The position numbers and the translations under genes are program-made. A DNA stretch of 64,000 bases, taken from assembly GCF_050920415.1 (NCBI RefSeq), contig NZ_CP169309.1, one strand, 5' to 3'. Numbering within the stretch: the stretch's first letter is position 1; the number at the start of each line of letters is the position of its first letter. Positions 21,151-59,555 of the stretch are shown here, in pieces. The notes beneath the pieces are model-generated. The model searched no databases and was not told where the DNA came from. It worked only from the letters and a program-made list of their open reading frames with translations. The stretch is from Escherichia coli. Its GTDB lineage: Bacteria > Pseudomonadota > Gammaproteobacteria > Enterobacterales > Enterobacteriaceae.

Positions 21151-21321
21151 TTCCTGAACTTCAGAATCATCTTGCTGCTGCTTCGATTCAGCAAGGATAA
21201 AGGGTATGATAGTGAAAAGGGATAAAAGCATTGTCATCTGCGGCAGCTATGAGTAATGTTGGCCCTAACGAATAGCGGTTGCTTAAACGAATCCGACTCT
21301 CACATTATCAGGGGTATAAAA

Positions 21322-21651
21322 ATGGAAACTACCAAGCCTTCATTCCAGGATGTACTGGAATTTGTTCGTCTGTTCCGTCGTAAGAACAAACTGCAACGTG
21401 AAATTCAGGACGTTGAGAAAAAGATCCGTGACAACCAGAAGCGCGTCCTGCTGCTGGACAACCTGAGTGATTACATCAAGCCGGGGATGAGCGTTGAAGC
21501 AATCCAGGGCATCATCGCCAGCATGAAAGGTGACTATGAAGATCGCGTTGACGATTACATCATCAAAAATGCCGAGCTCTCCAAAGAACGCCGCGATATC
21601 TCCAAAAAGCTGAAAGCTATGGGCGAAATGAAAAACGGCGAAGCGAAGTAA
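21322..21651 (+). CDS. yeeX: DUF496-family protein YeeX
   Basis: ORF 21256..21651; start at [20 protein letters not shown], 109 aa. Confidence 0.88.
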
Positions 21652-21667
21652 TTCCTGTTTTATTCAA

Positions 21668-21700
21668 TGAGGGTTGCCCGGTAACCCTCATTGCTCATTG
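21668..21700 (+). terminator. Terminator after yeeX
   Basis: tgagggttgcccggtaaccctca hairpin followed by T-rich tract. Confidence 0.65.
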
Positions 21701-21751
21701 TTTCTTTTCTGTGTATCACCGTCATCATTCCCATCTGATAACCTATTGAAA

Positions 21752-21934
21752 TTAGCGATAGCCTTCTTCTGTATGCAGCAAGGCAAAAAGTTCTGCAACT
21801 CCATTGTTATTAACCGCACTGGTTACTAACACATTGTGCGCTCCAGCTTCCCGTAACCAACTTTTCACCAAAGATATTTGTTCCATACTGGCTAAATCTG
21901 CTTTGGTGACTACTCCAATGACCGGGCGATTCAT
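21752..21934 (-). pseudogene. yoeF: Remnant of a PduV/EutP-like small GTPase gene (yoeF-like fragment)
   Basis: 60 aa ORF ...[25 protein letters not shown]... resembles the C-terminus of PduV/EutP-family proteins; no full-length partner frame. Confidence 0.45.
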
Positions 21935-22519
21935 TGACGAGGTAAAGCCTGGCGAAAAAGGTGACCACGGTGCGTCCGCATTAAGTACCAGCGCGATAAT
22001 GTCTGCTTCGCAGGCACTGACTAACAGAGCACTGTAGAGGCTGCGGTTTTATCGGTGAGGACTGGCAGCAAGATTTCCAGCCTTTTGACGGTGGGCCTGT
22101 GCAATCGTTATCAGATTCGTATAGCGATTATTCAGTGCTGCTATTGATAGCAGCTGAAAGCGAGATATCCGTACCAGAATAGCTCCCTCATTCTGAGGGA
22201 ACGACGGTAATTTTGATTGCAGAACACAATGCCCGTTTGCTGAATGGTCCGGCTGGTGGGGCTGTAGCATTAATCCATTATTTGAATGAAATCAGTCATG
22301 CCAGAGAAACCGCTGTCAATGACGCATTTTGTCGGACGTTAACACGAGGAAGTCTGGCTATTCCGCAATGCCATCTTCTTTCGTAATGGATTGAGAATGC
22401 TGGATTTTTAATTATATTACGCGCAGTATTAATCGCGTAAATGTTTTGCGGTCAGCAACAGTGGGGGAACCATTGTTCTGTTCAATGAATACCATCATAC
22501 AATTGAATCAGGAGTCGGT

Positions 22520-24957: not shown

Positions 24958-27208
24958 ATGATGCGTCGTGTAAATATTTTTTGCTCATTTGCTCTACTTT
25001 TTGCCAGCCATAATAGCCTGGCGGTAACTTATCCATTACCTCCAGAGGGTAGCCGTTTAGTGGGACAGTCGCTTACTGTAACTGTTCCTGATCACAATAC
25101 CCAGCCGCTGGAGACTTTTGCCGCACAATACGGGCAAGGGTTAAGTAACATGCTGGAAGCGAATCCGGGGGCTGATGTCTTCTTACCGAAGTCTGGCTCG
25201 CAACTCACCATTCCGCAGCAACTGATTTTGCCCGCCACTGTTCGTAAAGGGATTGTGATTAACGTCGCTGAGATGCGTCTTTATTACTACCCGCCAGACA
25301 GTAATACTGTGGAAGTCTTTCCTATTGGTATCGGCCAGGCTGGGCGAGAAACCCCGCGTAACTGGGTGACTACCGTTGAACGTAAACAAGAAGCACCAAC
25401 CTGGACGCCAACGCCGAACACCCGGCGCGAATATGCGAAACGAGGGGAGAGTTTGCCCGCATTTGTTCCTGCGGGGCCTGATAATCCCATGGGGCTGTAC
25501 GCGATTTATATTGGCAGGCTATATGCCATCCACGGTACCAATGCCAATTTTGGTATTGGGCTCCGGGTAAGTCAGGGCTGTATTCGTCTGCGCAATGACG
25601 ATATCAAATATCTGTTTGATAATGTTCCTGTAGGTACTCGTGAACCGCCCCGGAAATCCTGGAGACTAAACTTCCTGAGAAAGAGGTAAACAGGATGACT
25701 AAAAATACTCGTTTTTCCCCCGAAGTCCGTCAACGCGCAGTTCGTATGGTTCTGGAAAGTCAGGGCGAATATGACTCACAATGGGCGGCAATTTGTTCCA
25801 TTGCTCCAAAGATTGGCTGTACGCCAGAGACTCTGCGTGTCTGGGTTCGCCAGCATGAGAGGGATACCGGGAGCGGTGATGGTGGGCTCACCACCGCTGA
25901 ACGTCAGCGTCTGAAAGAGCTGGAACGTGAAAATCGTGAACTGCGCCGCAGTAACGATATCCTTCGCCAGGCTTCCGCTTATTTTGCGAAGGCGGAGTTC
26001 GACCGCCTCTGGAAAAAATAATGCCACTGCTGGATAAGCTGCGTGAGCAGTACGGGGTCGGACCGGTATGCAGTGAACTGCATATTGCCCCGTCAACGTA
26101 TTACCATTGTCAGCAGCAGCGGCATCATCCTGATAAACGCAGTGCCCGTGCGCAGCGCGATGACTGGCTGAAGAGAGAGATACAGCGCGTATACGATGAA
26201 AATCATCAGGTGTACGGTGTGCGTAAAGTCTGGCGTCAGTTGTTACGGGAAGGAATCAGGGTGGCCAGATGTACAGTGGCGCGCCTCATGGCGGTTATGG
26301 GACTTGCCGGTGTTCTCCGGGGTAAAAAGGTCCGCACTACCGTCAGCCGGAAAACCGTTGCCACAGGTGACCGCGTAAACCGTCAGTTCGTGGCAGAACG
26401 TCCTGACCAGCTGTGGGTGGCTGATTTTACTTACGTCAGCACATGGCAGGGCTTCGTCTATGTGGCGTTCATCATTGATGTGTTTGCCGGATACATCGTG
26501 GGGTGGCGGGTCTCATCGTCTATGGAAACGACATTCGTGCTGGATGCGCTGGAGCAGGCGTTGTGGGCCCGTCGTCCGTCTGGCACCATCCATCACAGCG
26601 ATAAAGGCTCTCAGTATGTGTCACTGGCCTATACGGAGCGACTAAAAGAAGCAAAACTGCTGGCATCAACAGGGAGTACAGGCGACTCGTATGACAACGC
26701 GATGGCTGAGAGCATCAATGGTCTTTACAAAGCGGAGGTAATACACCGTAAGAGCTGGAAAAACCGTGCAGAAGTGGAACTGGCCACACTCACGTGGGTG
26801 GACTGGTATAACAATCGACGATTGCTGGGAAGGCTGGGCCATACTCCTCCGGCAGAAGCAGAAAAAGCTTATTATGCTTCCATCGGAAACAATGATCTGG
26901 CAGCCTGAGTTCACAGATAAAACACTCTCCAGGAAACCCGGGGCGGTTCAACTCGTGTACAAATTATTGATCAGCCAGTGAAATACACAACGGAACCGGA
27001 TGGATCAAAGTGGCTGGAAGTTCATGAGCCACTGTCGCGCAACCGTGCGGAATATGAGTCAGACCGAAAAGTGCCTTTGCCAGTAACGCCATCTTTGCGG
27101 ACGTTCATTAACGGGCAAGAAGTTGATGTGAATCGCGCAAATGCTGCATTGCAGCGCCGATCAGGAATGCCTGTGCAAATTAGTTCTGGTTCAAGACAGA
27201 TGTTTTAA
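24958..27208 (+). pseudogene. ldtA: L,D-transpeptidase LdtA (ErfK) interrupted by an IS element; 5' part 24958..25640, 3' part 26951..27208
   Basis: N-terminal ORF ends ...DNVPVGTR at the IS boundary; the reading frame resumes exactly after the IS as TRVQIIDQPVKYTTEPDGS...SGSRQMF. Confidence 0.9.
25641..26950 (+). mobile_element. IS3-family insertion sequence, IS629/IS1203-like, 1310 bp, with orfA 25695..26021 and orfB 26021..26908
   Basis: Terminal inverted repeats TGAACCGCCCCGG...CCGGGGCGGTTCA; orfA (108 aa, HTH) and orfB (295 aa, DDE transposase) overlap at an A-rich slippery region; flanked by direct repeat ACTCG. Confidence 0.92.
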
Positions 27209-27230
27209 GAGCGTTGTTAATTAGAAAGCA

Positions 27231-27258
27231 AAAAGCCTGCTCGAAAGCAGGCTTTTTT
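27231..27258. terminator. Hairpin terminator between ldtA and asnV
   Basis: aaaagcctgctcgaaagcaggctttttt. Confidence 0.75.
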
Positions 27259-27263
27259 GAATT

Positions 27264-27339
27264 TGGCTCCTCTGACTGGACTCGAACCAGTGACATACGG
27301 ATTAACAGTCCGCCGTTCTACCGACTGAACTACAGAGGA
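27264..27339 (-). tRNA. asnV: tRNA-Asn (GUU)
   Basis: 76 nt; reverse complement begins TCCTCTGTAGTTCAGTCGGTAGAACGGCGGACTGTTAATCC and ends ...GAGGAGCCA. Confidence 0.95.
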
Positions 27340-27592
27340 ATCGTGTGAACGGGGCGCATATTAATGGCAGTGCATGGTGATGTCAAAGGGTGAAATGCAT
27401 TTTTTTGTTTGTTTGCTGCCAATTTCGACAAAATGGTGAGCTTTCAATCTTTTTGGTAATGAACCATCGTGGTGCATACCTTTCTGTCTTGGGGCAGAGA
27501 ACGCGAGTTCTAATAAAAAGATCGAGTGACAAAACTATCATAATCTCTTATTTGACCGTTGGTTAGCTTGCATATCAACACAAAATTAAAAC

Positions 27593-27608
27593 TGGCAAGT
27601 ATCTTGCA
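27593..27608 (+). promoter_or_regulatory. Sigma-54 type promoter (-24 GG / -12 GC) upstream of nac
   Basis: TGGCAagtatcTTGCA with canonical GG-N10-GC spacing, about 55 bp upstream of nac ATG. Confidence 0.7.
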
Positions 27609-27663
27609 ATCTGGTTGTAAGTAATGGCGGCACTTGGGCCGATTCTTATAAACCGGAGGCAAC

Positions 27664-28581
27664 ATGAACTTCAGACGCCTGAAATACTTCGTAAAAATTG
27701 TAGATATTGGTAGCCTGACCCAGGCTGCTGAAGTGTTGCATATCGCGCAACCCGCGCTCAGCCAGCAGGTTGCCACGCTGGAAGGTGAGTTGAATCAACA
27801 ACTTTTGATTCGCACAAAACGGGGCGTTACGCCAACAGACGCCGGAAAAATTCTCTATACCCATGCGCGGGCCATTTTACGTCAGTGTGAGCAGGCCCAA
27901 CTGGCGGTGCATAACGTTGGTCAGGCATTATCGGGGCAAGTCTCGATTGGCTTTGCACCAGGAACAGCGGCCTCATCTATCACCATGCCTTTATTGCAGG
28001 CGGTTCGCGCTGAATTCCCGGAAATTGTTATTTATCTCCATGAAAATAGCGGTGCTGTGCTCAACGAAAAACTGATAAGCCACCAACTCGATATGGCAGT
28101 AATTTATGAGCATTCTCCTGTGGCTGGTGTTTCCAGTCAGGCTTTGCTGAAAGAAGATCTTTTCCTGGTAGGAACGCAAGATTGCCCGGGGCAAAGCGTT
28201 GATGTTAATGCTATTGCGCAAATGAACCTCTTTCTCCCCAGCGATTACAGTGCCGTTAGACTTCGTGTTGATGAGGCTTTTTCCCTACGGCGACTCACGG
28301 CAAAAGTCATTGGTGAAATTGAGTCTATTGCCACGCTTACCGCAGCAATTGCCAGCGGCATGGGCGTTGCAGTATTACCCGAATCGGCCGCGCGTTCGTT
28401 ATGTGGCGCAGTAAACGGATGGATGTCACGCATTACCACACCTTCAATGAGTCTCTCTTTGTCATTAAATTTACCCGCCAGAGCGAACTTATCACCACAG
28501 GCGCAAGCAGTGAAAGAGTTGTTAATGTCAGTGATGAGTTCTCCAGTGATGGAAAAAAGGCAGTGGCAATTGGTGAGCTAA
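27664..28581 (+). CDS. nac: Nitrogen assimilation control protein (LysR family)
   Basis: 305 aa, MNFRRLKYFVKIVDIGSLTQAAEVLHIAQPALSQQ. Confidence 0.93.
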   Translation: MNFRRLKYFVKIVDIGSLTQAAEVLHIAQPALSQQVATLEGELNQQLLIRTKRGVTPTDAGKILYTHARAILRQCEQAQLAVHNVGQALSGQVSIGFAPGTAASSITMPLLQAVRAEFPEIVIYLHENSGAVLNEKLISHQLDMAVIYEHSPVAGVSSQALLKEDLFLVGTQDCPGQSVDVNAIAQMNLFLPSDYSAVRLRVDEAFSLRRLTAKVIGEIESIATLTAAIASGMGVAVLPESAARSLCGAVNGWMSRITTPSMSLSLSLNLPARANLSPQAQAVKELLMSVMSSPVMEKRQWQLVS

Positions 28582-28682
28582 GCGTTATATCGGGATGGAA
28601 TAAGATGCGGGTTTTTATTATTTGTTATGCCGGGCATTAAACTTTAACAATAACGTGATATCTGAACTGCCCGGAGTTTACC

Positions 28683-29633
28683 GTGAATTTCCAACAACTA
28701 AAGATAATCCGCGAGGCTGCACGTCAGGATTACAACCTGACAGAGGTTGCGAATATGCTTTTTACCTCACAGTCAGGCGTCAGCCGTCACATTCGGGAAC
28801 TGGAGGATGAACTTGGCATCGAAATATTTGTTCGACGAGGTAAGCGACTGCTGGGCATGACTGAACCGGGCAAAGCATTACTGGTCATTGCAGAACGTAT
28901 TCTGAATGAAGCCAGTAATGTTCGTCGGCTTGCAGACCTGTTTACCAACGATACGTCTGGCGTTCTCACTATTGCAACGACGCATACTCAGGCACGTTAT
29001 AGCTTGCCTGAGGTCATTAAAGCTTTTCGCGAACTTTTCCCGGAGGTTCGGCTGGAGCTAATCCAGGGTACACCACAGGAAATTGCGACGTTGTTGCAAA
29101 ATGGCGAAGCTGATATTGGTATCGCCAGCGAGCGTTTAAGTAATGACCCGCAGCTCGTCGCCTTCCCGTGGTTTCGTTGGCACCATAGTTTGCTTGTTCC
29201 ACTCGATCATCCCTTGACGCAAATTATACCGTTGACGCTGGAATCAATAGCGAAGTGGCCGTTAATCACTTACCGACAGGGGATTACGGGGCGCTCACGT
29301 ATTGATGACGCATTTGTCCGCAAAGGTTTGCTGGCAGATATTGTATTAAGTGCGCAGGATTCTGATGTCATTAAAACCTATGTTGCACTCGGGCTGGGGA
29401 TTGGATTAGTTGCCGAACAATCCAGCGGTGAACAAGAGGAAAAGAATTTAATCCGTCTGGATACGCGGCATCTTTTCGATGCTAATACTGTCTGGTTGGG
29501 ACTCAAGCGAGGACAACTTCAGCGTAACTATGTCTGGCGCTTTCTGGAACTTTGTAATGCAGGACTGTCAGTTGAGGATATCAAGCGCCAGGTGATGGAG
29601 AACAGTGAAGAGGAAATTGATTATCAGATATAG
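28683..29633 (+). CDS. cbl: CysB-like LysR-family regulator of sulfonate utilisation
   Basis: 316 aa, MNFQQLKIIREAARQDYNLTEVANMLFTSQSGVSRHIRELE. Confidence 0.93.
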   Translation: MNFQQLKIIREAARQDYNLTEVANMLFTSQSGVSRHIRELEDELGIEIFVRRGKRLLGMTEPGKALLVIAERILNEASNVRRLADLFTNDTSGVLTIATTHTQARYSLPEVIKAFRELFPEVRLELIQGTPQEIATLLQNGEADIGIASERLSNDPQLVAFPWFRWHHSLLVPLDHPLTQIIPLTLESIAKWPLITYRQGITGRSRIDDAFVRKGLLADIVLSAQDSDVIKTYVALGLGIGLVAEQSSGEQEEKNLIRLDTRHLFDANTVWLGLKRGQLQRNYVWRFLELCNAGLSVEDIKRQVMENSEEEIDYQI

Positions 29634-29634
29634 C

Positions 29635-29663
29635 AAAAAGCCCGCTATAAAAGCGGGCTTTTC
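29635..29663. terminator. Hairpin terminator between cbl and asnU
   Basis: aaaaagcccgctataaaagcgggctttt. Confidence 0.75.
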
Positions 29664-29670
29664 AGAAATT

Positions 29671-29746
29671 TGGCTCCTCTGACTGGACTCGAACCAGTGA
29701 CATACGGATTAACAGTCCGCCGTTCTACCGACTGAACTACAGAGGA
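29671..29746 (-). tRNA. asnU: tRNA-Asn (GUU)
   Basis: 76 nt, identical tRNA-Asn sequence on minus strand. Confidence 0.95.
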
Positions 29747-29906
29747 ATCGCTGTTGAGGCACATCTTAACGGCGAAAAATCTTTTGTCAAACCCGATTTT
29801 TAAATTTCCCAACTGTTTGCCGTTTCTATCAACAGTTTGTTGCATTTGCAGACAATTTGTTGGCGAAAATCTTTGCAGCTTTGCTGATTCTCCCTCATCA
29901 TTTGAA

Positions 29907-31394
29907 ATGTGGTTTCACTTTTTGCAATTAAGGTCGGCTTTGAATATCTCCTCTGCTTTACGCCAGGTTGTTCACGGCACTCGCTGGCACGCCAAACGCA
30001 AGAGCTACAAGGTGTTGTTCTGGCGCGAGATAACCCCGCTTGCTGTTCCTATCTTCATGGAGAATGCCTGTGTCCTGTTGATGGGTGTTTTGAGTACTTT
30101 TCTGGTCAGCTGGCTGGGAAAAGATGCGATGGCCGGCGTGGGATTGGCGGACAGCTTCAATATGGTCATTATGGCTTTTTTTGCAGCTATCGATCTTGGT
30201 ACTACTGTCGTTGTGGCATTTAGTCTCGGTAAGCGGGATCGACGACGAGCGAGGGTGGCGACGCGGCAGTCATTGGTGATCATGACGTTGTTTGCCGTAC
30301 TGTTGGCAACGCTTATTCATCATTTTGGCGAACAAATTATTGATTTCGTCGCAGGTGATGCCACGACAGAAGTTAAAGCACTGGCGTTGACTTATCTGGA
30401 GCTGACGGTACTCAGTTATCCAGCAGCTGCCATCACTTTGATTGGTAGCGGGGCACTTCGTGGTGCAGGGAATACGAAAATACCGCTACTGATTAACGGT
30501 AGCCTGAATATTCTTAATATTATTATTAGCGGCATATTGATTTACGGCCTTTTCTCCTGGCCGGGACTGGGATTTATCGGGGCTGGGTTGGGGTTAACCA
30601 TTTCTCGTTATATTGGCGCAGTGGCAATTTTGTGGGTGCTGGCGATTGGTTTTAATCCTGCGCTAAGGATTTCGTTAAAGAGCTATTTTAAACCGCTGAA
30701 TTTTAGCATTATCTGGGAAGTCATGGGGATTGGCATTCCTGCGAGTGTCGAATCAGTATTATTTACCAGTGGTCGGTTATTAACCCAAATGTTCGTTGCC
30801 GGGATGGGGACCAGTGTTATTGCCGGGAATTTTATCGCGTTTTCAATTGCGGCTCTTATCAACTTACCCGGAAGTGCGCTCGGCTCTGCTTCTACAATCA
30901 TTACAGGCCGAAGGTTGGGGGTAGGGCAGATAGCGCAAGCAGAGATTCAGTTGCGGCATGTGTTCTGGCTGTCCACTCTTGGATTAACGGCCATCGCCTG
31001 GCTAACGGCTCCCTTTGCTGGGGTTATGGCATCGTTTTACACCCAGGATCCACAGGTTAAACATGTCGTTGTGATTCTGATTTGGCTAAATGCTTTATTT
31101 ATGCCTATTTGGTCTGCCTCATGGGTGCTACCCGCTGGATTTAAGGGGGCTCGCGATGCCCGTTACGCCATGTGGGTTTCTATGTTGAGCATGTGGGGTT
31201 GCCGGGTTGTAGTCGGTTATGTGCTGGGAATCATGCTTGGCTGGGGTGTGGTTGGTGTCTGGATGGGAATGTTTGCCGACTGGGCTGTGCGGGCCGTGCT
31301 GTTTTACTGGCGCATGGTTACTGGACGTTGGCTGTGGAAATACCCTAGACCTGAGCCGCAAAAGTGTGAAAAAAAGCCAGTTGTGTCGGAATAA
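29907..31394 (+). CDS. yeeO: MATE-family multidrug/flavin efflux transporter
   Basis: ORF 29754..31394 (546 aa); start placed at internal Met MWFHFLQ (495 aa); 12-TM MATE-like; start uncertain. Confidence 0.8.
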   Translation: MWFHFLQLRSALNISSALRQVVHGTRWHAKRKSYKVLFWREITPLAVPIFMENACVLLMGVLSTFLVSWLGKDAMAGVGLADSFNMVIMAFFAAIDLGTTVVVAFSLGKRDRRRARVATRQSLVIMTLFAVLLATLIHHFGEQIIDFVAGDATTEVKALALTYLELTVLSYPAAAITLIGSGALRGAGNTKIPLLINGSLNILNIIISGILIYGLFSWPGLGFIGAGLGLTISRYIGAVAILWVLAIGFNPALRISLKSYFKPLNFSIIWEVMGIGIPASVESVLFTSGRLLTQMFVAGMGTSVIAGNFIAFSIAALINLPGSALGSASTIITGRRLGVGQIAQAEIQLRHVFWLSTLGLTAIAWLTAPFAGVMASFYTQDPQVKHVVVILIWLNALFMPIWSASWVLPAGFKGARDARYAMWVSMLSMWGCRVVVGYVLGIMLGWGVVGVWMGMFADWAVRAVLFYWRMVTGRWLWKYPRPEPQKCEKKPVVSE

Positions 31395-31494
31395 ACGACA
31401 AAGTGCAGATTATTTCAGCAAACGATTTCAAATTTAAAAAACAGGCTTTGACATTAAGGATGGGCATCGCTAATATTCGCCTCGTTCTCACGAT

Positions 31495-31570
31495 TCCTCT
31501 GTAGTTCAGTCGGTAGAACGGCGGACTGTTAATCCGTATGTCACTGGTTCGAGTCCAGTCAGAGGAGCCA
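31495..31570 (+). tRNA. asnW: tRNA-Asn (GUU)
   Basis: TCCTCTGTAGTTCAGTCGGTAGAACGGCGGACTGTTAATCCGTATGTCACTGGTTCGAGTCCAGTCAGAGGAGCCA. Confidence 0.95.
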
Positions 31571-31577
31571 AATTTTA

Positions 31578-31607
31578 GTTTTGAGACATCTCTATAAGTC
31601 TCAAAAC
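31578..31607 (+). terminator. Hairpin terminator after asnW
   Basis: gttttgagacatctctataagtctcaaaac. Confidence 0.7.
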
Positions 31608-34637: not shown

Positions 34638-35954
34638 TCAAGCGTGTTGATTGTCTTTCATCAACAAAGCGGTCATTGCGGAAATCAGGCATCCAGCCAG
34701 TAAATAAATGGCGACGCTATGCCAGTTCCCGGCAAAGTAAGTGATAAGTGCAGCGGCAATGAAAGGTGTAAATCCACCGCCAACCACACTGGCAACCTGA
34801 TATCCGACTCCAGCGCCACTATAGCGATAACTGGCACCAAACATTTCGGTAAACATCGGTTGTTGCACGCACACCACCATGTCATGCGCAATGTTTGCCA
34901 GCATTATGGAGAAGAAAACTATCCAGAAAATAGATTGTGCTTCAAGCGCCATAAAGAAAGGAAATGCGCTCAACGTTCCGATTAACGCACCTGTGATATA
35001 AACTCTGCGGCGACCAAAACGATCGGCAAGCCAGGCAAAACAGGGAATTGTCAGACAGCTTAGTCCACCTACCAGCAAACCGATATTAAGGAAAAGTTCG
35101 CGCGGTAACCCCATATTTTGGGTTGAATAGTTAAGCGCAAAGGCGGTAACGATGTACATCGTCAGCAACTCGCACAGTCGTAGCGCAATAATCTTCAGAA
35201 AAGCACCGGGATGTCGTAACAGTGCTTCGATAACCGGGATGCGTTTTTGCGCTGCCGCTTGATTATGTTGCTGTTGTTCAAATTCCGCGGACTCCTCCAT
35301 GCCATTACGCACCCACAATGCTCCCAGCACCAGTACGATGCTAAACAGGAAAGGAATACGCCAGCCCCAGCTTAGAAACTGTTCGTCAGTCGTCATCATA
35401 CTGATCAGTGAAACCAGTCCGGTCGAAAGCAGTAAACCTACTCCGTAGCCAACTTGTACACCGCTACTGTAAAAGGCTTTTTTATTTTTCGGTGCACTTT
35501 CAACGGAAAGTAACGCCGCGCCTCCCCATTCGCCGCCGACGGCAAATCCCTGAATGGCACGCAGTGTCACCAGTAAAATGGGGGCCCACCAACCTATGGT
35601 CGAGAAGGAAGGAAGAATGCCAATCAAGGCTGTCGCGATGCCCATCATCCAGACGGTCAGCATTAACATGCGCTTACGTCCCAGTCGGTCGCCAAAGTGA
35701 CCGAAAATGACACCGCCGAGCGGACGGAACAGGAATCCGACACCAAAGGTGGCAAATGCGGCGAGCGTTCCCATAGCCGGGCTTACTTGCGGGAAAAACT
35801 CGCGATTAAACACCAGTGCGGCGGTAATGCCATAGAGTAAAAAATCATACCAGTCGACGACGGCACCAGCGAAACTGCCTAACGCAGCTCGTCGGGCGCG
35901 ACTTAACGAAAGCGTCCCTTCATCGGGACGAGTGGAGATGAGCGTGGAGTCCAT
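34638..35954 (-). CDS. shiA: Shikimate transporter (MFS)
   Basis: 438 aa, MDSTLISTRPDEGTLSLSRARRAALGSFAG, 12-TM MFS. Confidence 0.93.
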   Translation of the reverse strand: MDSTLISTRPDEGTLSLSRARRAALGSFAGAVVDWYDFLLYGITAALVFNREFFPQVSPAMGTLAAFATFGVGFLFRPLGGVIFGHFGDRLGRKRMLMLTVWMMGIATALIGILPSFSTIGWWAPILLVTLRAIQGFAVGGEWGGAALLSVESAPKNKKAFYSSGVQVGYGVGLLLSTGLVSLISMMTTDEQFLSWGWRIPFLFSIVLVLGALWVRNGMEESAEFEQQQHNQAAAQKRIPVIEALLRHPGAFLKIIALRLCELLTMYIVTAFALNYSTQNMGLPRELFLNIGLLVGGLSCLTIPCFAWLADRFGRRRVYITGALIGTLSAFPFFMALEAQSIFWIVFFSIMLANIAHDMVVCVQQPMFTEMFGASYRYSGAGVGYQVASVVGGGFTPFIAAALITYFAGNWHSVAIYLLAGCLISAMTALLMKDNQHA

Positions 35955-36259
35955 AATGATCCTGTTTGTACTGTCTTTTTATAATTAGTATGGAAAAGGT
36001 AACTCACATTGCCGTCGATCTATAAACGAACCTTATGAGACTACCTCGACAGAGCGCATCTGCAAATGATTTTATGGCTGATTAACGGCAACATGAAAAA
36101 TTCGATGGAAGATGAAATCGCAGGAGTTGCATAAGGATTGAGCAGAGCACCTACAGTTTTGAGATATGAAACATAAAAGTCCGCATATGCACAAAATTGC
36201 ACCCTGATGATTCTGATAGACTGCATTGCATTTTAACCAGTAGGGAGGCGAGGTTAGGT

Positions 36260-37330
36260 ATGTTTTTAGCATCATTGTTGAGACGTATTGCATTTAGTTA
36301 CTACGATTATAAAGCTAATAATTTCAATATTGAAAAAACAGAGTTTGTTGTCATCCATATTCCCGATCAGATTGGCGATGCTATGGCTATCTTTCCAGTG
36401 ATTCGGGCGCTTGAATTGCATAAAATCAAGCATCTTTTAATTGTTACTTCGACAATTAATTTAGAAGTCTTTAATGCGCTCAAACTTGAACATACTAAAT
36501 TAACATTAGTCACAATGACTATGCAGGATCACGCAACATTAAAAGAAATAAAAGATTTAGCGAAGAACATAACACAGCGATACGGTACGCCGGATCTTTG
36601 TATAGAGGCGATGCGTAAAAAGAACCTGAAAACGATGTTATTTATCAGTCAGTTGAAAGCAAAAACGAATTTTCAGGTTGTCGGTTTAACCATGAAGTGC
36701 TATTCCCCTTTGTGTAAGAACGCCTCCCGGATGGATCAACATCTCCGGGCTCCCGTACCCATGACATGGGCGTTTATGATGCGTGAAGCGGGTTTTCCTG
36801 CAGTCAGGCCAATATATGAATTACCATTAAGCGAGCAGGTAATAAATGAAGTACGTGAGGAATTGTGCACTTTAGGATCTTACATTGCGCTTAATTTAGA
36901 TGGCAGCGTGCAGGAACGCACATTTTCGTTATCAGTAGCTGAGAAACTCATCGCCAAAATTCAAAGTGATAATGATATGCCAATAGTCATTGTTCATGGA
37001 CCAAAAGGGGAAGATAAAGCCCGGAAATTAGCGGGTTGTTATAATAATGTCTACCGGCTATCCTTATCACCCTCGATTAAACGTTCAGCAGCAATCATAA
37101 AAGATGCTTATATCGCAATAACCCCTGATACCTCAATATTACATATGGCAAGTGCCTATAATACCCCCGTCGTTGCAATTTATGCTGATTACAAAACGCG
37201 GTGGCCTGCGATGGCAGATATCTCGGAGTCAGTGGTCGTTGGGCAAAAAATTGATCATATAAGTTTGGATGAATTCGGAAAGGCGCTAAAAAGTGCTTTG
37301 GAGAGAGTATGTGTCAGTACTTACGTATAG
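36260..37330 (+). CDS. yeeL: Glycosyltransferase family 9 (heptosyltransferase-like) protein, apparently intact
   Basis: ORF 36197..37330; start at MFLASLL with GGAGG RBS; C-terminal ...ITPDTSILHMASAYNTPVVAIYADY... typical of GT9. Confidence 0.7.
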   Translation: MFLASLLRRIAFSYYDYKANNFNIEKTEFVVIHIPDQIGDAMAIFPVIRALELHKIKHLLIVTSTINLEVFNALKLEHTKLTLVTMTMQDHATLKEIKDLAKNITQRYGTPDLCIEAMRKKNLKTMLFISQLKAKTNFQVVGLTMKCYSPLCKNASRMDQHLRAPVPMTWAFMMREAGFPAVRPIYELPLSEQVINEVREELCTLGSYIALNLDGSVQERTFSLSVAEKLIAKIQSDNDMPIVIVHGPKGEDKARKLAGCYNNVYRLSLSPSIKRSAAIIKDAYIAITPDTSILHMASAYNTPVVAIYADYKTRWPAMADISESVVVGQKIDHISLDEFGKALKSALERVCVSTYV

Positions 37331-37706
37331 AGGGTAATGCCGATCTATGCTGAACAGGGGACATTAATACCCTGAGGTTGGTCAATCACCACAAAAAAAG
37401 CCTTTGAATCAAAGCAATACTCACCGAATAATAAGGCAACCTGAACTTAAATCCCCGTTAACTGCCATACATTATTATGACTTGCACTGATGTAATTAGC
37501 TAAACATTATCGTGATTTGACTAAATAGCAAAAATGATAGCTATTAAAAATAGCTCATATACTTTGTTTCCCGCTGCCGTAGAATAGATGGTCCTTCCAT
37601 GTTCAAGCATTTATTCAAAAAAAGGGGGCTCGACTGTCTTCAGATAAACAGAGAGGGATTGTAAAGTCGAGTGCCCCTAATGGAGCACTCTATAAAAAAT
37701 CAACAA

Positions 37707-45695
<7,989 letters not shown>

Positions 45696-46107
45696 GCTTA
45701 CCTTCCCTGAACGAGCTAACATAAATGCGCCCTTTCTAGCACAGCGAAAAAATATAAATCCTGATAGCAATATGATTGAAAATTAATAACTTTTCGTTAA
45801 GCAGTTTTGGGTGTGAGTTGCAAGAGGGGAGACTACTGAATAACTCAGTTTAATAATTGAGGGGGCAATGGTGACGAATATAGGGACGGAGTAGAGAAGA
45901 TAGTGCTGAACTCTTTGCCAGCAGAAGGTTATGTGGCACAAAAATAACCGTAACTTCTCACTCTCGACAGGAAAGCTGTAGACGGCGTCCATAACAAAAC
46001 GCCCCCAACCATAAGGTCGAGGGCGCTTAAGATGACAAACCCGCTCTTCGTTAAAGAATCAATGCTTAATGTAGATGAGTTGCATTGCACGATAAAAGCG
46101 AATTTTT

Positions 46108-46129
46108 AGAATTTGGCTCCTCTGACTGG
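46108..46129. repeat. 21-bp direct repeat of the 3' end of tRNA-Asn (distal att site of the islet)
   Basis: gaatttggctcctctgactgg is identical to 54382..54402 (3' end of asnT plus 5 bp). Confidence 0.85.
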
Positions 46130-46462
46130 GATCGCCGTAGCCATTAACAGGCTGATTGGTAAAGCTAAAAAAATTTGAGTTTGTCAAGACCACCAGAATG
46201 ACCACCATTTTAAAGTAACATTTGAAGTTTACTCAGTAGCACCTTTAGCTTCACTTACAATCAATTAACCTGTGAAGATAGCTGTACCTACAATCGCAAT
46301 AACTTATTACAGATCCGACGACAAACATCACCTGTTATCCACTCTGGCACTACCGTGCATGATAATCAATAAGTCGGGTGCTGGCTTGCAAGGCAATTGC
46401 GTTGTAATGTACCAAATCCCAGTTCGCCTTCACTCTAAAATGCCCCGACGTTTCGAACGCGT

Positions 46463-47341
46463 TTACGGTAAATAATGCGTGACAATCTGCAGGAACTCAT
46501 CCCGCATCTGGTTGTCGATTTTCGGATTCCATGCCACACCAATGTTCCATATGATCTGCTTTCCCCACAGAGTAATCAGCTTGACTCCTACAGGTAAAAA
46601 ATTCTCGACGCTGGCGGGTAGCAGCGCGAGACCATTCCCTCCGGCTATCAATGCTAGCAGGGAATGAATATCATTCGTCGCAGAGATTGGCTCAATGATG
46701 AGTTCATTATCCCGCAGGAACGCAGTCGTTTGCTCCGCCAGACAAGGGCTGACCGCTGGATCCATGCATAAAATCGGATAGATTGCCAGCGTACGCTGGA
46801 GATCGGTGGGATCAATATCGACGGCTACCGGGACAGCCAACACCAGATTTTCTTTATTTATTAAGCGAGAGGCCAATAATTCTGTTACCGGCATACGAAC
46901 AAAACCAGCATGCAGTTCACCTTCCATCAACATCCTAGCTTGTACGCTGGAGGCAATTTGGCTGATAACAACGTCGCAGTCGGGAAATTTCTGGCGAAAA
47001 GTGTTAATCCAAACTGGTGTGCTTTTAAACGAAGATATACCAAATCCGAGCACCAGTTTACCCGTACTCCCCTTTTGGATTTCTCTGGCGTAGGTTAAAA
47101 AATCGTGGTGGGATTTCAGCAACTCATAAGCTTTAGCAAACAACTGCCTGCCAACCATCGTCAACACTGCCCCGTGGCGACCACGCAGGAAAAGCTGCCC
47201 TCCGGTCTTCTGTTCGAGCATCTTGATCTGCTTTGAAAGCGCAGGTTGTGTCAGAAATAAAGCTTCTGCAGCTTTATTGTAGTTTCCCTTTTCCGCCAGT
47301 GTCACAAATGCACGCAGCAGCCTTATATCTATTCCTGACAT
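46463..47341 (-). CDS. LysR-family transcriptional regulator (islet-encoded, divergent from the operon)
   Basis: 292 aa, N-terminal HTH IRLLRAFVTLAEKGNYNKAAEALFLTQPALSKQIKMLE. Confidence 0.85.
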   Translation of the reverse strand: MSGIDIRLLRAFVTLAEKGNYNKAAEALFLTQPALSKQIKMLEQKTGGQLFLRGRHGAVLTMVGRQLFAKAYELLKSHHDFLTYAREIQKGSTGKLVLGFGISSFKSTPVWINTFRQKFPDCDVVISQIASSVQARMLMEGELHAGFVRMPVTELLASRLINKENLVLAVPVAVDIDPTDLQRTLAIYPILCMDPAVSPCLAEQTTAFLRDNELIIEPISATNDIHSLLALIAGGNGLALLPASVENFLPVGVKLITLWGKQIIWNIGVAWNPKIDNQMRDEFLQIVTHYLP

Positions 47342-47567
47342 TTATTGAATCCTGAAAAATTGGAATTATACAAATACTCGCAACAGATGACATGATGCGT
47401 AAAATGATTTACGCCGAGATCCCCTTGGTTTGTCAAACTCAGAAACGCCATACCTGCTGCTCTTGGTTCTATTTAACACTCACTAATGCGCAGGTTATTT
47501 ATAAAAATTGACCTCATAAATCATTCAAAAACATTAATTATATAAATACAATAAGGATTAAATATTT
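47342..47567. promoter_or_regulatory. Divergent promoter/operator region between the LysR gene and the isochorismatase-hypEF operon
   Basis: 226-bp AT-rich intergenic region between divergent starts; classic LysR arrangement; no specific site mapped. Confidence 0.5.
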
Positions 47568-48167
47568 ATGCCAAATATTGCCGTTCTCACTAATGACCTG
47601 CAGTATGAGTTTACCTACAAAATAACACGCTCTCCAGAAATTCTGGCGCAAAAACTCGTCCAGTTTAATCAGTTTCTCGATGGCATTCGCGCTCTGGATC
47701 AATCCATTATCCACCTGCAACTTATCAACGATCCTAATGACCCGGCGGTACAAAAGCGCTATCGCAACCGCGAAGCGGGCATTCCTGCACTAGCTGGTCG
47801 CCCGGAAAACCAGATTATCGATAAAGTATACCGCCCCACAGATCTGGTTGTAGTCAAGGGCAGAGACAGCGGTTTTTTTAATAACGATCTCGACGAAATC
47901 CTCCAGCAACTCGGGGTAAAAACCGTAATCGTTACCGGGTTGCAAACTCATGTTTGCGTGCAGACCACTGCAGCGGATGCCTTCTTTCGCGGCTATAACG
48001 TCTGGGTACCGGGCGACTGCGTGTTCGCTCCTTCGTCCGAAGATACAGAGCGTGCACTCGAGTGGCTTGCCAGCTATTGCGCAACTGTAGCACCTTCTGC
48101 GGAAATTTTATCAATATTGCAAAAACAGAACGATCTGCCTGAGCGCGGCGAAAGGGAAGCATCATGA
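47568..48167 (+). CDS. Isochorismatase-family cysteine hydrolase
   Basis: 199 aa; ...VTGLQTHVCVQTTAADAF... matches the catalytic Cys region of the isochorismatase/CSHase/nicotinamidase family. Confidence 0.75.
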   Translation: MPNIAVLTNDLQYEFTYKITRSPEILAQKLVQFNQFLDGIRALDQSIIHLQLINDPNDPAVQKRYRNREAGIPALAGRPENQIIDKVYRPTDLVVVKGRDSGFFNNDLDEILQQLGVKTVIVTGLQTHVCVQTTAADAFFRGYNVWVPGDCVFAPSSEDTERALEWLASYCATVAPSAEILSILQKQNDLPERGEREAS

Positions 48168-49195
48168 GCTTAACCCAGACGCTAAATCATGAAGAGGTCG
48201 TTGTACTGGATCATGGCACCGGGGCGAAATTAAGCCGCGAGTTGGTTGAAAAAATTGCTAGCATTCTCGGTGACACCTATCTGGGCGTGATGGAAGATAG
48301 CGCGGTGCTGGGGTTATCCACCAGGCGAATTGCCTTCACCACCGACTCCTTTGTTGCCACGCCGCTGATTTTCGGCAACGGTGATATTGGCAAAATCGCC
48401 GTATGCGGCACCGTTAACGATCTCGCTGTCAGTGGGGCTCGTCCCCTTTACATCACACTCAGTCTTATTATTGAGGAAGGTATGCCGATGGCTGATCTGG
48501 TCAGAATCATCGAGTCCGTACGTGAAACGGCTCGTGAGGCAGAGGTCAAGATTGTCGCTGGTGATACCAAGGTCGTAGGTAAAGGTGAAGCAGATCGGCT
48601 GTTTATCAATACTGCTGGCATCGGCGTGTTTGAACATCCGCCAGTCTCAGTTAAGAACGTGCGTCCGGGGCAGAAAATAATCCTGAGCGGATATATCGGC
48701 AATCACTCGATTCACCTGCTGTCGATGCGGGAAGGATTGGGGTTCGAGCGAAATATTCTTAGTGATTGCGCACCGCTGAACCACATTATTGACAAACTTA
48801 TCAGCAACATCCCTGAAGGCAAAATAGCGTCAATGCGAGACGTTACGCGCGGTGGGCTGTCCGCTGTTTTACACGAACATGCGCGCGCAACAAATTATCA
48901 GATTCATTTCGACCAGCCATCTTTGCCCATACAGCCGGAAACCGCCATGGCAGCTAATATGCTGGGTGTTGACGTCATTAATCTCGCTAATGAAGGTTGT
49001 TTGTGCCTGTTTGTTGAACCTGAGTATGCTCAGAAGGTACTACATTTGCTGCAGGAGCATCCTGTCGGCAAGCACGCGACAATTATCGGCGAGATCACCG
49101 CTGTCTCGGGTACTGAAGTCTATATGATTGAAGCTGATGGAACACACACAGAAGTCGAGGAATTATATGGCGCAGAATTACCCAGACTCTGTTGA
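48164..49195 (+). CDS. HypE-like protein (PurM superfamily; carbamoyl dehydratase / thiocyanate-forming type) with C-terminal Cys
   Basis: 343 aa; ...DTKVV.KG.ADRLFINTAG.G... and C-terminus ...ELPRLC resembling HypE PRIC; ATGA overlap with upstream gene. Confidence 0.8.
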   Translation: MSLTQTLNHEEVVVLDHGTGAKLSRELVEKIASILGDTYLGVMEDSAVLGLSTRRIAFTTDSFVATPLIFGNGDIGKIAVCGTVNDLAVSGARPLYITLSLIIEEGMPMADLVRIIESVRETAREAEVKIVAGDTKVVGKGEADRLFINTAGIGVFEHPPVSVKNVRPGQKIILSGYIGNHSIHLLSMREGLGFERNILSDCAPLNHIIDKLISNIPEGKIASMRDVTRGGLSAVLHEHARATNYQIHFDQPSLPIQPETAMAANMLGVDVINLANEGCLCLFVEPEYAQKVLHLLQEHPVGKHATIIGEITAVSGTEVYMIEADGTHTEVEELYGAELPRLC

Positions 49196-51545
49196 GCTTC
49201 ACGAGACGCCGGAAACCCGGCGTTACCGCATCTGTGGGGTCGTTCAGGGCGTTGGATTTCGTCCCTTTGTTCACCGACTGGCCCGCACCTATGGTGCCAC
49301 CGGCTGGGTGTTAAACGATTCAGAAGGCGTGTTGCTTGAGCTGCAGGCATCCGGCACGGTTATTGCCAGAATCATGGACAAACTGGTGACCGAGGCACCA
49401 CCACTGGCAAAAATCATCAGTACGCAGGAAGTTAGCCCAACGGATACCAGAGCGCACTATGAAACGTTCAGCATCCGTAAAAGCCGCGATCATACCAGCA
49501 TGGACACGATTATCCCGCCAGATACCAACGTCTGCAGCGATTGCCTGCGCGAGATAAGCGATCCTGATAATCATCGTTATCGTTACGCTTTCACCAATTG
49601 CACCAATTGTGGGCCGCGCTATTCCATTATTCTTGGTATGCCTTACGATCGTGCCCAGAGCACTATGCGTAAATTCCCTTTATGTCCAACCTGTGAGCGT
49701 GAATACAACGATATTGAGGATCGACGCTATCATGCCCAGCCCAATGCCTGCCCAGTTTGCGGCCCACAGTTGCAACTTACCGATCGACAGGGCACATCCG
49801 TTCACACAGATGATATTGTCAAATTTGCCATTACGAAACTAAAAGAAGGCGGAATTCTTGCAATAAAGAGCCTTGGTGGCTTTCATCTCGTGGCCGATGC
49901 TTGCAATGAGAATGCTGTCAATGAACTTCGGCAACGCAAGCGAAGAGACGCCAAACCTTTTGCAGTGATGGTCGCGGATGTGGAAAGCGCGTCGCGTATT
50001 GCTTTCATCCCCCCCTGTAATCACAAATTGCTGGAAAGCCCGCAGCGTCCCATTGTCTTGTTGTATAAGCGCAACGTCCTGCTGGCGAGTACCGTTGCGC
50101 CACATAATCCGAACATCGGTGTAATGCTGCCTTCAACGCCGCTTCAGCATTTATTGCTGGAAGACCCGTCTCTGCCGATCCTGATTATGACCAGCGGTAA
50201 TATTTCCGGTCATCCGATCGTCTTTGACAACGACATGGCAATTAAGCAACTCGGGAAAATCGCGGATTACTTCATTCTGAATAATCGCGATATTCATACG
50301 CGTGTTGACGATTCGGTGGTCCGCACGGTGTTTCTCAACGACGCCATTACCTCGCAGCTATCGTTTTTGCGCCGCTCCCGCGGTTACGCGCCATACCCTA
50401 TTCATCTACCTTACGCAGTGGATTCCGTTATCGCGCTCGGGGCGGAGCTAAAAAACACGATCAGCATCGGCAAAGGAAAACAGGTTTTTCTGAGCCAGCA
50501 TATTGGCGATCTTAAGAATAACGTGACTTTTAAATCACATATCGAATGTATTGATCATCTTCAAAACCTGCTGAACGTGAAGGCAAATGTCGTGGCCTGC
50601 GATTTGCATCCCTCTTTCCGCTCTACCCGGCATGCGCTGGAGAATTTAGAGCATCAGGTTGTTCAGGTTCAACACCATCACGCGCATATGGCATCCTGCA
50701 TGGCGGAAAATGGCCTGTCAGGTACTACTCTAGGCGTAATTTTTGACGGTACAGGATATGGCACCGACGGCACCATTTGGGGCGGTGAGTTTCTCGTTGG
50801 TGATTTCGAAAAATTCGAGCGTGCAGGATGCTTGCGTTCAATGACCCTGCCCGGAGGCGATCGGGCAGTTAAAGAGCCGCTGCGCGTCGGCATCTCCTTA
50901 CTGGTGGAAACCTTCGGCGAAGATATCAGTACGCTCGCAGTACCAGGCTTGCAGGCGCTCCAGCCTCAGCAGCGCGATATATTCAGTAAAATGGCGACCA
51001 GAAAAATCAACACCACCACGACCAGCAGCATGGGCAGACTATTTGACGGCATCGCCGCGCTGATGGGCGTTTGCACTCAGGTGGAGTACGAAGCCCAGGC
51101 GGCCATTGAACTGGAAGCGCTGCTGCAGTGTAAACTTCATATGACGGCTCCGTTCAGCTACATCATTGCCGATGTCGAGAATAAGCTCGAGGTGGATTAT
51201 CGCCCGATGATAAGGGAACTGGTGCAATGCTTCAGCCAGCCCGGTTTTGATATGGCCGAACTAAGTCGGCGCTTTCACTCTACCATCGTCGACATGATTT
51301 GCGAGGTCTGTAAACGTCTGGTGGCACGCTCAGGCACGCAACAAATTGTCCTGAGCGGCGGCGTGTTCTGCAATGAATTCATCCTCGTTAATTCTCTTAA
51401 CAGTCTGGAGTCTTGTGGATTCCGGCCTTACAGCCATCAGTTAGTTCCGACTAACGATGGTGGTATTTCATTGGGGCAAGTGGTTATTGCTACCGCATAC
51501 ACTCGCGCAACGCGCAATAAAAATCTGGAGAGAGAAAATGCATAG
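49167..51545 (+). CDS. HypF-like carbamoyltransferase (acylphosphatase, two CxxC-N18-CxxC Zn fingers, YrdC-like and Kae1-like domains)
   Basis: ORF 49128..51545; start at ATG 49167 with GAGG RBS; VQGVGFRPFV acylphosphatase motif; CSDC...CTNCGPR and CPTC...CPVCGP fingers; HHHAH in the C-terminal domain. Confidence 0.82.
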   Translation: MAQNYPDSVELHETPETRRYRICGVVQGVGFRPFVHRLARTYGATGWVLNDSEGVLLELQASGTVIARIMDKLVTEAPPLAKIISTQEVSPTDTRAHYETFSIRKSRDHTSMDTIIPPDTNVCSDCLREISDPDNHRYRYAFTNCTNCGPRYSIILGMPYDRAQSTMRKFPLCPTCEREYNDIEDRRYHAQPNACPVCGPQLQLTDRQGTSVHTDDIVKFAITKLKEGGILAIKSLGGFHLVADACNENAVNELRQRKRRDAKPFAVMVADVESASRIAFIPPCNHKLLESPQRPIVLLYKRNVLLASTVAPHNPNIGVMLPSTPLQHLLLEDPSLPILIMTSGNISGHPIVFDNDMAIKQLGKIADYFILNNRDIHTRVDDSVVRTVFLNDAITSQLSFLRRSRGYAPYPIHLPYAVDSVIALGAELKNTISIGKGKQVFLSQHIGDLKNNVTFKSHIECIDHLQNLLNVKANVVACDLHPSFRSTRHALENLEHQVVQVQHHHAHMASCMAENGLSGTTLGVIFDGTGYGTDGTIWGGEFLVGDFEKFERAGCLRSMTLPGGDRAVKEPLRVGISLLVETFGEDISTLAVPGLQALQPQQRDIFSKMATRKINTTTTSSMGRLFDGIAALMGVCTQVEYEAQAAIELEALLQCKLHMTAPFSYIIADVENKLEVDYRPMIRELVQCFSQPGFDMAELSRRFHSTIVDMICEVCKRLVARSGTQQIVLSGGVFCNEFILVNSLNSLESCGFRPYSHQLVPTNDGGISLGQVVIATAYTRATRNKNLERENA

Positions 51546-52278
51546 TTCTGCGAACCGTATTGCCGCTGTTTTATTCGATATGGATGGTGTCCTTATTGAT
51601 TCCAATGCGGTGATTGAGCGCGGCTGGGCTGAAGGCGCACAGATGTTTGGCAAGACGCTAACGGAAGAGGATATCGTCAGGCATATTCACGGACAGCCCG
51701 GCCCGCATACCATTCGCGCCCTGTTCAGCGACCTTTCCCTGGAAGATCAAAAGAAGGTCCAGTCACATATCATCCACGTTGAAAATACCGCTGATTACGA
51801 CCCGATCCCTGGAGTTAGCGAACTTATCCAGGCGTTGCATAAGGCTGGCATCAGTGTGGGGATTGTCACTAGCGGCTGGCGGTCGAAAATCGATCGTATT
51901 ATGGAGATGCTGCAAATCACGCCCTGTATTTCAGTGATTGTCGAACGTGATGATGTCGTGCGCGGCAAGCCTTATCCCGATCCTTATCTGCTTGCCGCAG
52001 AGCGGTTTCATCTTGCACCGTCCAGAACACTGGTCTTTGAGGATTCAAGAAGCGGCGTAACATCTGCTGTTACAGCAGGCGCAATTTGTGTTGGCATCGG
52101 TACAGACAGTCTGAAAGAGTGCGGTGCCGTGCTTGCAATTACAGATTTTCGTAATGTGAAAATCACCTCACAGACAGGCGAAAAAGTAGTGATTGCCTTT
52201 ACTCCAGAGCACCAGATGGAGATGGAAACTCAGAGCTCTCGTAAGAAAACATCCTGTACCACAAGAGAAGAGTGCTAA
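51538..52278 (+). CDS. HAD-superfamily hydrolase (subfamily IA, phosphatase/beta-phosphoglucomutase-like)
   Basis: ORF 51457..52278; start at MHSSANRIAAVLFDMDGVLIDS (DxDG motif), overlapping the hypF-like stop. Confidence 0.75.
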   Translation: MHSSANRIAAVLFDMDGVLIDSNAVIERGWAEGAQMFGKTLTEEDIVRHIHGQPGPHTIRALFSDLSLEDQKKVQSHIIHVENTADYDPIPGVSELIQALHKAGISVGIVTSGWRSKIDRIMEMLQITPCISVIVERDDVVRGKPYPDPYLLAAERFHLAPSRTLVFEDSRSGVTSAVTAGAICVGIGTDSLKECGAVLAITDFRNVKITSQTGEKVVIAFTPEHQMEMETQSSRKKTSCTTREEC

Positions 52279-54027: not shown

Positions 54028-54225
54028 TTACGCGAACTGAACATCCAGATCCGGCGGGTATGCGCCAAGACTGACTCTGGATTCTTTTCCGTTGAAACGA
54101 TATTTGAGATACCAGATGCGTGAACCGCCCGGATTGACGAGCAGATACAGACCGTGAGAGTCGGAGAGTTTTACCGGACGGGAAGAGGTTTTTAACTTGC
54201 GGATTTTAGAATCGTTTAAAGACAT
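54028..54225 (-). pseudogene. P4-type tyrosine integrase, N-terminal remnant only
   Basis: MSLNDSKIRKLKTSSRPVKLSDSHGLYLLVNPGGSRIWYLKYRFNGKESRVSLGAYP matches the N-terminal arm-binding region of tRNA-associated island integrases, then terminates prematurely. Confidence 0.65.
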
Positions 54226-57878: not shown

Positions 57879-57908
57879 GATAACGCGTACTTTGTCGGCA
57901 ATATGAAG

Positions 57909-58544: not shown

Positions 58545-59555
<1,011 letters not shown>

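Follow-up and report, generated by a model that had tools for sequence, protein, structure and literature searches.

In the K-12 reference of Escherichia coli, the gene yeeL is a pseudogene. In the 64,000-nucleotide stretch of contig NZ_CP169309.1 (RefSeq assembly GCF_050920415.1) that was analyzed here, hereafter called the window, yeeL is intact and is predicted to encode a cytoplasmic GT-B glycosyltransferase of family GT9, either soluble or peripheral, and its adjacency to the adhesin gene yeeJ is most likely positional; the probability of this explanation as a whole is put at about 0.8. An intact yeeL is the ordinary, majority state in E. coli, to which K-12 is the exception, and the intact allele of the window, being already annotated in RefSeq, is not new. 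The discovery value of the locus is accordingly small, since the intact gene is annotated, is normal for the species, and comes without evidence of a partnership with yeeJ. The coding sequence and its immediate upstream features are the following:

36260..37330, plus strand: yeeL coding sequence, 356 amino acids (aa) plus stop, predicted intact GT-B/GT9 glycosyltransferase (open reading frame, RefSeq, homologue start, Pfam, AlphaFold2 model, structural neighbors)
36197..36259, plus strand: in-frame upstream extension of the mechanical open reading frame (TTG 36197), absent from homologues, with the RefSeq start at 36260
36243..36253, plus strand: Shine-Dalgarno-like GGGAGGCGAGG, 5' of ATG 36260, read from the sequence and identical in K-12
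35955..36259, no strand assigned: divergent shiA-yeeL intergenic region, 40% GC, presumed site of the yeeL promoter

The open reading frame runs uninterrupted from 36197 to 37330 on the plus strand and comprises 377 aa when counted from TTG 36197. At the local composition, a stop-free run of 377 codons is expected with P ~5e-12 per frame and ~6e-7 across the whole window, and the frame can therefore not be ascribed to chance. Sequence comparison identifies ATG 36260 as the true start, which gives a predicted protein of 356 aa: all homologues begin at the equivalent position (MFL/MSL), and because none of them has the extension and the RefSeq start is 36260 as well, the 63 bases further upstream are probably not translated. 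The putative ribosome-binding site consists of two parts, GGGAGG (36243-36248) and GAGG (36250-36253), both preceding ATG 36260. A first-pass annotation of the window had described a continuous frame of 356-377 aa with a GGAGG ribosome-binding site, and reading frame, ribosome-binding site and RefSeq coding sequence confirm this description. The RefSeq entry for 36260-37330 is WP_000477862.1, a “glycosyltransferase family 9 protein” of E. coli MFDS1022581, the chromosome of which matches the window at 99.99% identity over 25 kb, and public databases already hold the exact YeeL protein of the window on 73 contigs. Compared with other full-length alleles, the gene (40% GC) has no internal deletions, and the sole length difference is a C-terminus that is longer by 6 residues. 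A scan of 35850-37800 for promoters and terminators found sites that were no more numerous than in shuffled sequence and is therefore uninformative on yeeL expression.

The assignment of YeeL to GT9 is supported by sequence models and by the predicted fold. YeeL scores 30.4 bits against the Pfam model PF01075 (Glyco_transf_9; gathering cut-off 22) over residues 230-320, and an AlphaFold2 model computed on the family alignment (predicted local distance difference test, pLDDT, 89.4; predicted template modeling score, pTM, 0.87) has as its best Foldseek matches 3TOV, WaaC, and WaaF. The protein thus agrees with CAZy family GT9 in its sequence model as well as in its GT-B fold, the two Rossmann-like domains of which superpose on solved GT9 structures. 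A search of the Protein Data Bank (PDB) with the single YeeL sequence gave no match at E <=1; WaaC was reached only with a family profile, built from 19 homologues, at E 2e-5 (structures 2GT1 and 2H1H). In the profile alignment, with which hhalign agrees, R220 of YeeL corresponds to K192 of WaaC, and D290/T291/H295 correspond to D261/T262/H266. In the WaaC sequence used for the profile-profile alignment, residues 178-280 are consistent with the PDB alignment. In WaaC, Lys192 contacts the donor phosphate. The residues in question are encoded as follows:

36917..36919, plus strand: Arg220 codon, aligned with WaaC Lys192 (profile alignment to 2GT1, 2H1H)
37127..37144, plus strand: Asp290-Thr291-x-x-x-His295 codons (PDTSILH), predicted GT9 donor-sugar-binding motif (profile alignment with WaaC)
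36377..36379, plus strand: Asp40 codon, IGD motif at the start of helix 1 (invariance; position in the model)

The donor-site residues expected of a GT9 enzyme, i.e., D-T-x-x-x-H and a basic counterpart of WaaC K192, are found throughout the family: Arg220 is invariant in the 19 close homologues and the majority residue in the wider family, the PDTSILH motif occurs in every intact E. coli allele checked, and D40, D290, T291, and H295 are invariant in 19 close and 19 distant homologues, down to 22% identity. Asp40 follows strand 29-34 in the model and is located at helix 38-43, where G39-D40 is invariant. From the position of this motif and the superposition of the whole modeled fold, we infer that Asp40 may serve as the catalytic base, in the role of Asp13 in WaaC. 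The N-terminal domain has a basic isoelectric point (pI) of 9.4 and contains the conserved cysteines C114 and C147 and a third cysteine at position 152. The earlier proposal of an intact, heptosyltransferase-like GT9 protein is hence borne out by a Pfam score above threshold and by GT9 structural neighbors, and a check of the window allele for internal deletions or lost GT9 catalytic residues found neither.

Within GT9, sequence comparisons assign YeeL to a small, uncharacterized subfamily, separate from WaaC, WaaF, and WaaQ. YeeL shares with WaaC (HepI) and WaaF (HepII) (PDB 2GT1, 2H1H, 6DFE, 1PSW) the D-T-x-x-x-H donor motif, the basic residue that corresponds to WaaC K192, a putatively equivalent G-D motif of helix 1, and a basic N-terminal domain. 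However, it is only 12-16% identical to these enzymes and has an extra N-terminal helix as well as a conserved, cysteine-containing insertion at residues ~140-190, and its gene lies outside the waa (rfa) cluster, between shiA and yeeJ/tRNA-Asn, where it is solitary, dispensable, and often inactivated. With the NCBIfam equivalog models of heptosyltransferases I-III and of RfaC, RfaF, and RfaQ, YeeL scores at most 36 bits, far below the cut-offs of 135-583: TIGR02193, TIGR02195, and TIGR02201 yield 36.2, 20.2, and 16.8 bits (cut-offs 185.3, 134.6, and 170.2, respectively), and the RfaQ, RfaC, and RfaF models 12-15 bits (cut-offs 437-569). An exhaustive profile search returned only 36 clusters at E <=1e-30 among 1.84 billion representatives, which marks the subfamily as narrow within the large GT9 family. 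The structural match 3TOV, a GT9 protein of Veillonella parvula that is 15% identical to YeeL, is itself uncharacterized and therefore offers no clue to the acceptor.

The state of yeeL across the species turns on a single codon:

36962..36964, plus strand: codon 235, CAA (Gln), site of the K-12 nonsense change to TAA (alignment; allele counts in 5,426 genomes)

The annotation of K-12 EMG2 lists yeeL as a pseudogene, as the first-pass annotation had correctly stated, and gives an “internal stop” as the defect; alignment to the yeeL of the window traces the lesion to one CAA -> TAA change at codon 235, without frameshift or deletion. The gene is chromosomal; yeeL DNA was matched in 5,271 of 5,426 complete E. 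coli genomes (~97%), and the alleles of codon 235 were counted in the complete genomes by megablast, with 41-mers centered on the codon; since megablast needs an exact 28-base word, a central mismatch blocks the match, and the CAA and TAA alleles are counted separately. CAA was present in 4,115 genomes (76%), TAA in 770 (~14%). The rarity of an intact yeeL that had been implied earlier is therefore contradicted, and K-12, the stop of which is found in so small a share of complete genomes, is a poor reference for this locus. Indeed, full-length YeeL proteins of 346-350 aa predominate in the protein database, where one cluster alone has 10,923 member sequences. Other lesions have occurred as well: a second, independent nonsense change (TTA -> TAA at codon 60) is carried by 77 of the 5,426 genomes, including NDM4 and 2017.18.02CC, an IS1 insertion breaks the gene in one strain, and an island truncates it in O111:H8. 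The K-12 stop is a lineage-specific mutation of Gln235 and one of at least four independent inactivations of yeeL.

It could be argued from this record that yeeL, even where its frame is open, is a nonfunctional relic that is being lost, and that the intact frame has no biological meaning. The inactivating events listed above (codon 235, codon 60, IS1, island truncation) would be expected of such a relic, as would a ratio of nonsynonymous to synonymous substitution rates (dN/dS) several-fold above that of the neighboring genes, the low GC content together with the lack of a strong promoter in the scan, and the lack of a yeeL phenotype in the literature searched. However, dN/dS is 0.15-0.20 in all pairs of the window, K-12, O157, and CFT073 alleles (shiA and amn: 0.00-0.09), i.e., far below 1 even between alleles at a synonymous divergence (dS) of 0.3-0.65. 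Moreover, the full-length frame and its catalytic motifs are kept in Escherichia, Pseudocitrobacter, Hafnia, Erwinia, Pantoea, Rosenbergiella, and Halomonadaceae, and codon 235 is a sense codon in three quarters of the E. coli genomes, which makes a mere relic unlikely. The repeated inactivation and the dN/dS ratio taken together indicate that yeeL is dispensable, yet under purifying selection where it is intact. It is constrained less than its housekeeping neighbors, which fits an accessory enzyme that is dispensable and repeatedly lost.

Downstream of yeeL, the window contains the adhesin gene and the spacer that separates the two:

37707-45695, minus strand: yeeJ, long (UMN026-type) inverse-autotransporter adhesin gene, 2,662 aa (open reading frame, RefSeq, alignment)
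37331..37706, no strand assigned: convergent yeeL-yeeJ spacer, 376 bp, 38% GC, nearly unalignable with other alleles

Two length variants of yeeJ have been described (PMC5595812); that of the window is 86% identical to yeeJ of K-12 and has ~0.9 kb extra. The first-pass annotation had suggested a functional link between the two genes, such as glycosylation, and in its most explicit form this would mean that YeeL glycosylates YeeJ in the cytoplasm before export, in the manner of AAH/AIDA-I and TibC/TibA. In the window, the two genes lie side by side and neither is broken, and YeeJ expressed in K-12 shows no adhesion to extracellular matrix (ECM) proteins or epithelial cells, for which missing glycosylation could be blamed. 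However, yeeL and yeeJ converge tail-to-tail across an AT-rich spacer of 376 bp and are therefore not an operon, and they lack the arrangement with a co-oriented, conserved substrate gene that is seen in BAHT (autotransporter heptosyltransferase) systems. They also decay independently. In a check of co-occurrence among 14 annotated genomes, all four combinations were seen (both intact in 4, only yeeL in 6, only yeeJ in 2, neither in 2; Fisher p = 1): O157 and CFT073 have kept yeeL, with a yeeJ that is disrupted by insertion sequences (IS) or degraded, and K-12 and NDM4 have kept yeeJ, with a dead yeeL. According to published work on YeeJ, the adhesin gene is intact in only 35-40% of genomes. 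YeeJ expressed in K-12 hosts reaches the surface and promotes biofilm formation (PMC5595812), and since yeeL is a pseudogene in these hosts, YeeJ works without YeeL; the YeeJ papers mention neither yeeL nor glycosylation. Finally, tblastn found no YeeJ homologue nearby in 35 of 36 yeeL-homologue loci outside the complete-genome E. coli set, and the single locus with an adjacent YeeJ is on an E. coli-like contig. The proposed link is thus unsupported, and modification of YeeJ by YeeL before export is regarded as highly improbable. As a separate observation, contig JARKOR010000252.1, labeled as a metagenome-assembled genome (MAG) of “Candidatus Nanosynbacter”, carries an E. coli-like amn-shiA-yeeL-yeeJ segment with a ShiA that is 99% identical, and is almost certainly a binning contaminant.

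A covariation of the two genes does exist, in the form of a block of divergent sequence that extends from one into the other:

36700..42000, no strand assigned: divergent haplotype block that spans two-thirds of yeeL (3' side), the spacer, and the distal passenger region of yeeJ (73-92% identity, flanks 95-99%)

Codons 1-130 of yeeL and the flanks are 95-99% identical to other strains; identity falls from ~36,700 to ~42,000 and is again 96-99% at the β-barrel/LysM end of yeeJ. The low identity of the block, 73-92%, is also seen in comparison with other long-yeeJ strains. Overall, yeeL of the window is ~90% identical to most E. coli alleles; in codons 131-240, dS rises to 0.5-0.65 with dN/dS unchanged, and the haplotype of the window is found at >=98% identity in only 17 of the 5,426 genomes. 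In our interpretation, a recombination block, either old or imported, is centered on the variable tip of YeeJ, and the 3' end of yeeL has been carried along by hitch-hiking. The alternative that the 3' half of yeeL diverged through co-evolution of YeeL with YeeJ was rejected in favor of linkage, because the divergent segment continues without a break into the yeeJ block, encodes the donor-binding region, and has a dN/dS (0.12-0.17) that is not above that of the 5' part. Adaptation to a protein acceptor would be expected in the N-terminal, presumably acceptor-binding half; the half that covaries with yeeJ is the C-terminal, donor-binding one, which does not fit co-evolution with such an acceptor and speaks once more against YeeJ as the substrate. 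A hypervariable adhesin gene beside tRNA-Asn thus appears to drag the 3' end of its neighbor into a deep allelic split.

The positional reading of the adjacency is consistent with the history of the locus. In the cryptic Escherichia sp. strains MOD1-EC7003, E1V33, and E69, as in Pseudocitrobacter, tRNA-Asn lies within a few hundred bases after yeeL; mtfA is directly next in these Escherichia loci and follows after ~2.3 kb and a second tRNA-Asn in Pseudocitrobacter. The site at tRNA-Asn is variable and holds the high-pathogenicity island (HPI) in CFT073 and other islands in other genomes. The simplest reading would be that shiA-yeeL-tRNA-Asn-mtfA is the ancestral order, and that the variable site beside tRNA-Asn came to be occupied in E. 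coli by yeeJ, as in other cases by the HPI or another island. The yeeL homologues of E. albertii, Erwinia, Rosenbergiella, Hafnia, and Halomonas are found in unrelated positions, and clustering of the neighbors over 23 yeeL-homologue loci identified no partner conserved across genera; the only recurring neighbors are LysR and major facilitator superfamily (MFS) genes in Erwiniaceae and ExoD in Halomonas. The window itself carries, between yeeJ and tRNA-Asn/mtfA, an islet of ~8 kb (~45,900-55,700; NZ_CP169399.1 1,999,604-2,007,603) that is absent from K-12. It encodes a LysR regulator, a cysteine hydrolase, HypE-like and HypF-like (carbamoyltransferase) proteins, a HAD hydrolase, and an MFS transporter, with two integrase remnants immediately next to tRNA-Asn. 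It has the appearance of a small cargo or biosynthetic islet that integrated at tRNA-Asn.

Clues to the function of YeeL come from distant relatives. Carnimonas bestiolae encodes two full-length YeeL-like paralogues (35% and 33% identity; E 1e-77 and 1e-68) amid genes for GT2, GT4, two Wzy_C, WecG, and Bac_transf proteins (locus 5750-9059); a search for NCBIfam names returned none for the Wzy_C-type and kinase-like neighbors in this cluster. Another relative adjoins a cluster of Wzy_C, Bac_transf, WecG, GT4, and flippase genes, and in the 777-aa protein P0130 (locus 1955-4288), a Wzy_C O-antigen-ligase domain is fused to a YeeL-like domain (25% identity, E 2e-28). The Carnimonas paralogues and P0130 belong to the same subfamily as YeeL and conserve D40, D290, T291, and H295; unlike them, being embedded in a cluster or fused, yeeL of E. 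coli stands alone. Because of the glycan clusters of the relatives, the Wzy_C fusion, and the basic N-terminal domain, the acceptor is probably an anionic lipid-linked glycan or the core of lipopolysaccharide (LPS), by analogy. In the mechanism that we envisage, YeeL would, like other GT9 enzymes, take a sugar from a nucleotide-sugar donor and transfer it with inversion. The nucleotide sugar, for which ADP-L-glycero-D-manno-heptose is the default guess, would be held in the C-terminal domain by Arg220 and Asp290-Thr291...His295, Asp40 would serve as the catalytic base, and the N-terminal domain with its pI of 9.4 would bind an anionic lipid-anchored glycan, either the LPS core or an undecaprenyl-linked one. 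More specifically, and quite tentatively, the YeeL subfamily might add a non-stoichiometric sugar to the LPS core or a lipid-linked surface glycan at or near the step of a Wzy_C-type ligase, and its loss or replacement might reflect selection on antigenicity or phage-receptor properties together with the YeeJ tip. A modification of YeeJ itself in strains that keep both genes is less likely than this surface-glycan version. The occurrence of relatives in surface-glycan clusters and the Wzy_C fusion are the only functional lead, and a testable one, to an accessory modification of LPS or surface glycans.

A solitary GT9 enzyme could also act on a protein. BAHT genes adjoin an adhesin gene, and YeeL might be a BAHT-type protein O-heptosyltransferase for another autotransporter or surface protein that is encoded elsewhere, a role with which its GT9 fold, its conserved donor-site motifs, and the absence of a surrounding glycan cluster in Enterobacterales would agree. 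The likeness to the BAHT family (AAH, TibC; PDB 4RAP) lies in the GT9-related GT-B fold; further marks of that family are an iron-binding cysteine cluster and a dodecameric assembly. By sequence, however, the YeeL family profile has no match to TibC at E <=10, and the chains differ in length (381 residues in TibC, 356 aa in YeeL); yeeL converges on a type Ve adhesin gene, in contrast to a position upstream of a type Va autotransporter gene and co-transcription with it; and the distant relatives are found in polysaccharide/LPS clusters, one with a Wzy_C fusion and none adjoining an autotransporter. A role as a protein O-heptosyltransferase therefore has very little probability, and a glycan acceptor remains the preferred reading for this solitary GT9 enzyme.

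Several points weigh against the explanation proposed here. Profile methods aligned only the C-terminal domains of YeeL and WaaC and left the N-terminal domains unaligned, for which reason the equivalence of Asp40 and Asp13 is indirect. The glycan-cluster context comes from relatives that are only ~25-35% identical, in Enterobacterales yeeL is solitary and without a conserved neighbor in every locus examined, and we infer both the donor and the acceptor. The sample of 14 genomes behind the co-occurrence counts is small and phylogenetically non-independent. The recurrent loss of yeeL and its relaxed dN/dS imply that its function is weakly selected. Experiments on any member of the YeeL family were not found in the searchable literature, where the only mentions of yeeL concern its use as a neutral site for integration in the metabolic engineering of K-12.

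Some further features of the window lie apart from yeeL. At ~21,300-22,500, tmaR (yeeX) is immediately followed by eutP-like and cobalamin-gene remnants and then by cobU, and the CP4-44 prophage region of K-12 is presumably absent here. The L,D-transpeptidase gene ldtA is interrupted by a frameshifted IS3-family element (~24,960-27,210), and an IS2 element, also of the IS3 family, is inserted between zinT and msrQ (~57,740-58,970). Several copies of tRNA-Asn flank nac-cbl-yeeO (27,200-31,600), a segment that has the opposite orientation in CFT073-type genomes as compared with the window and K-12.

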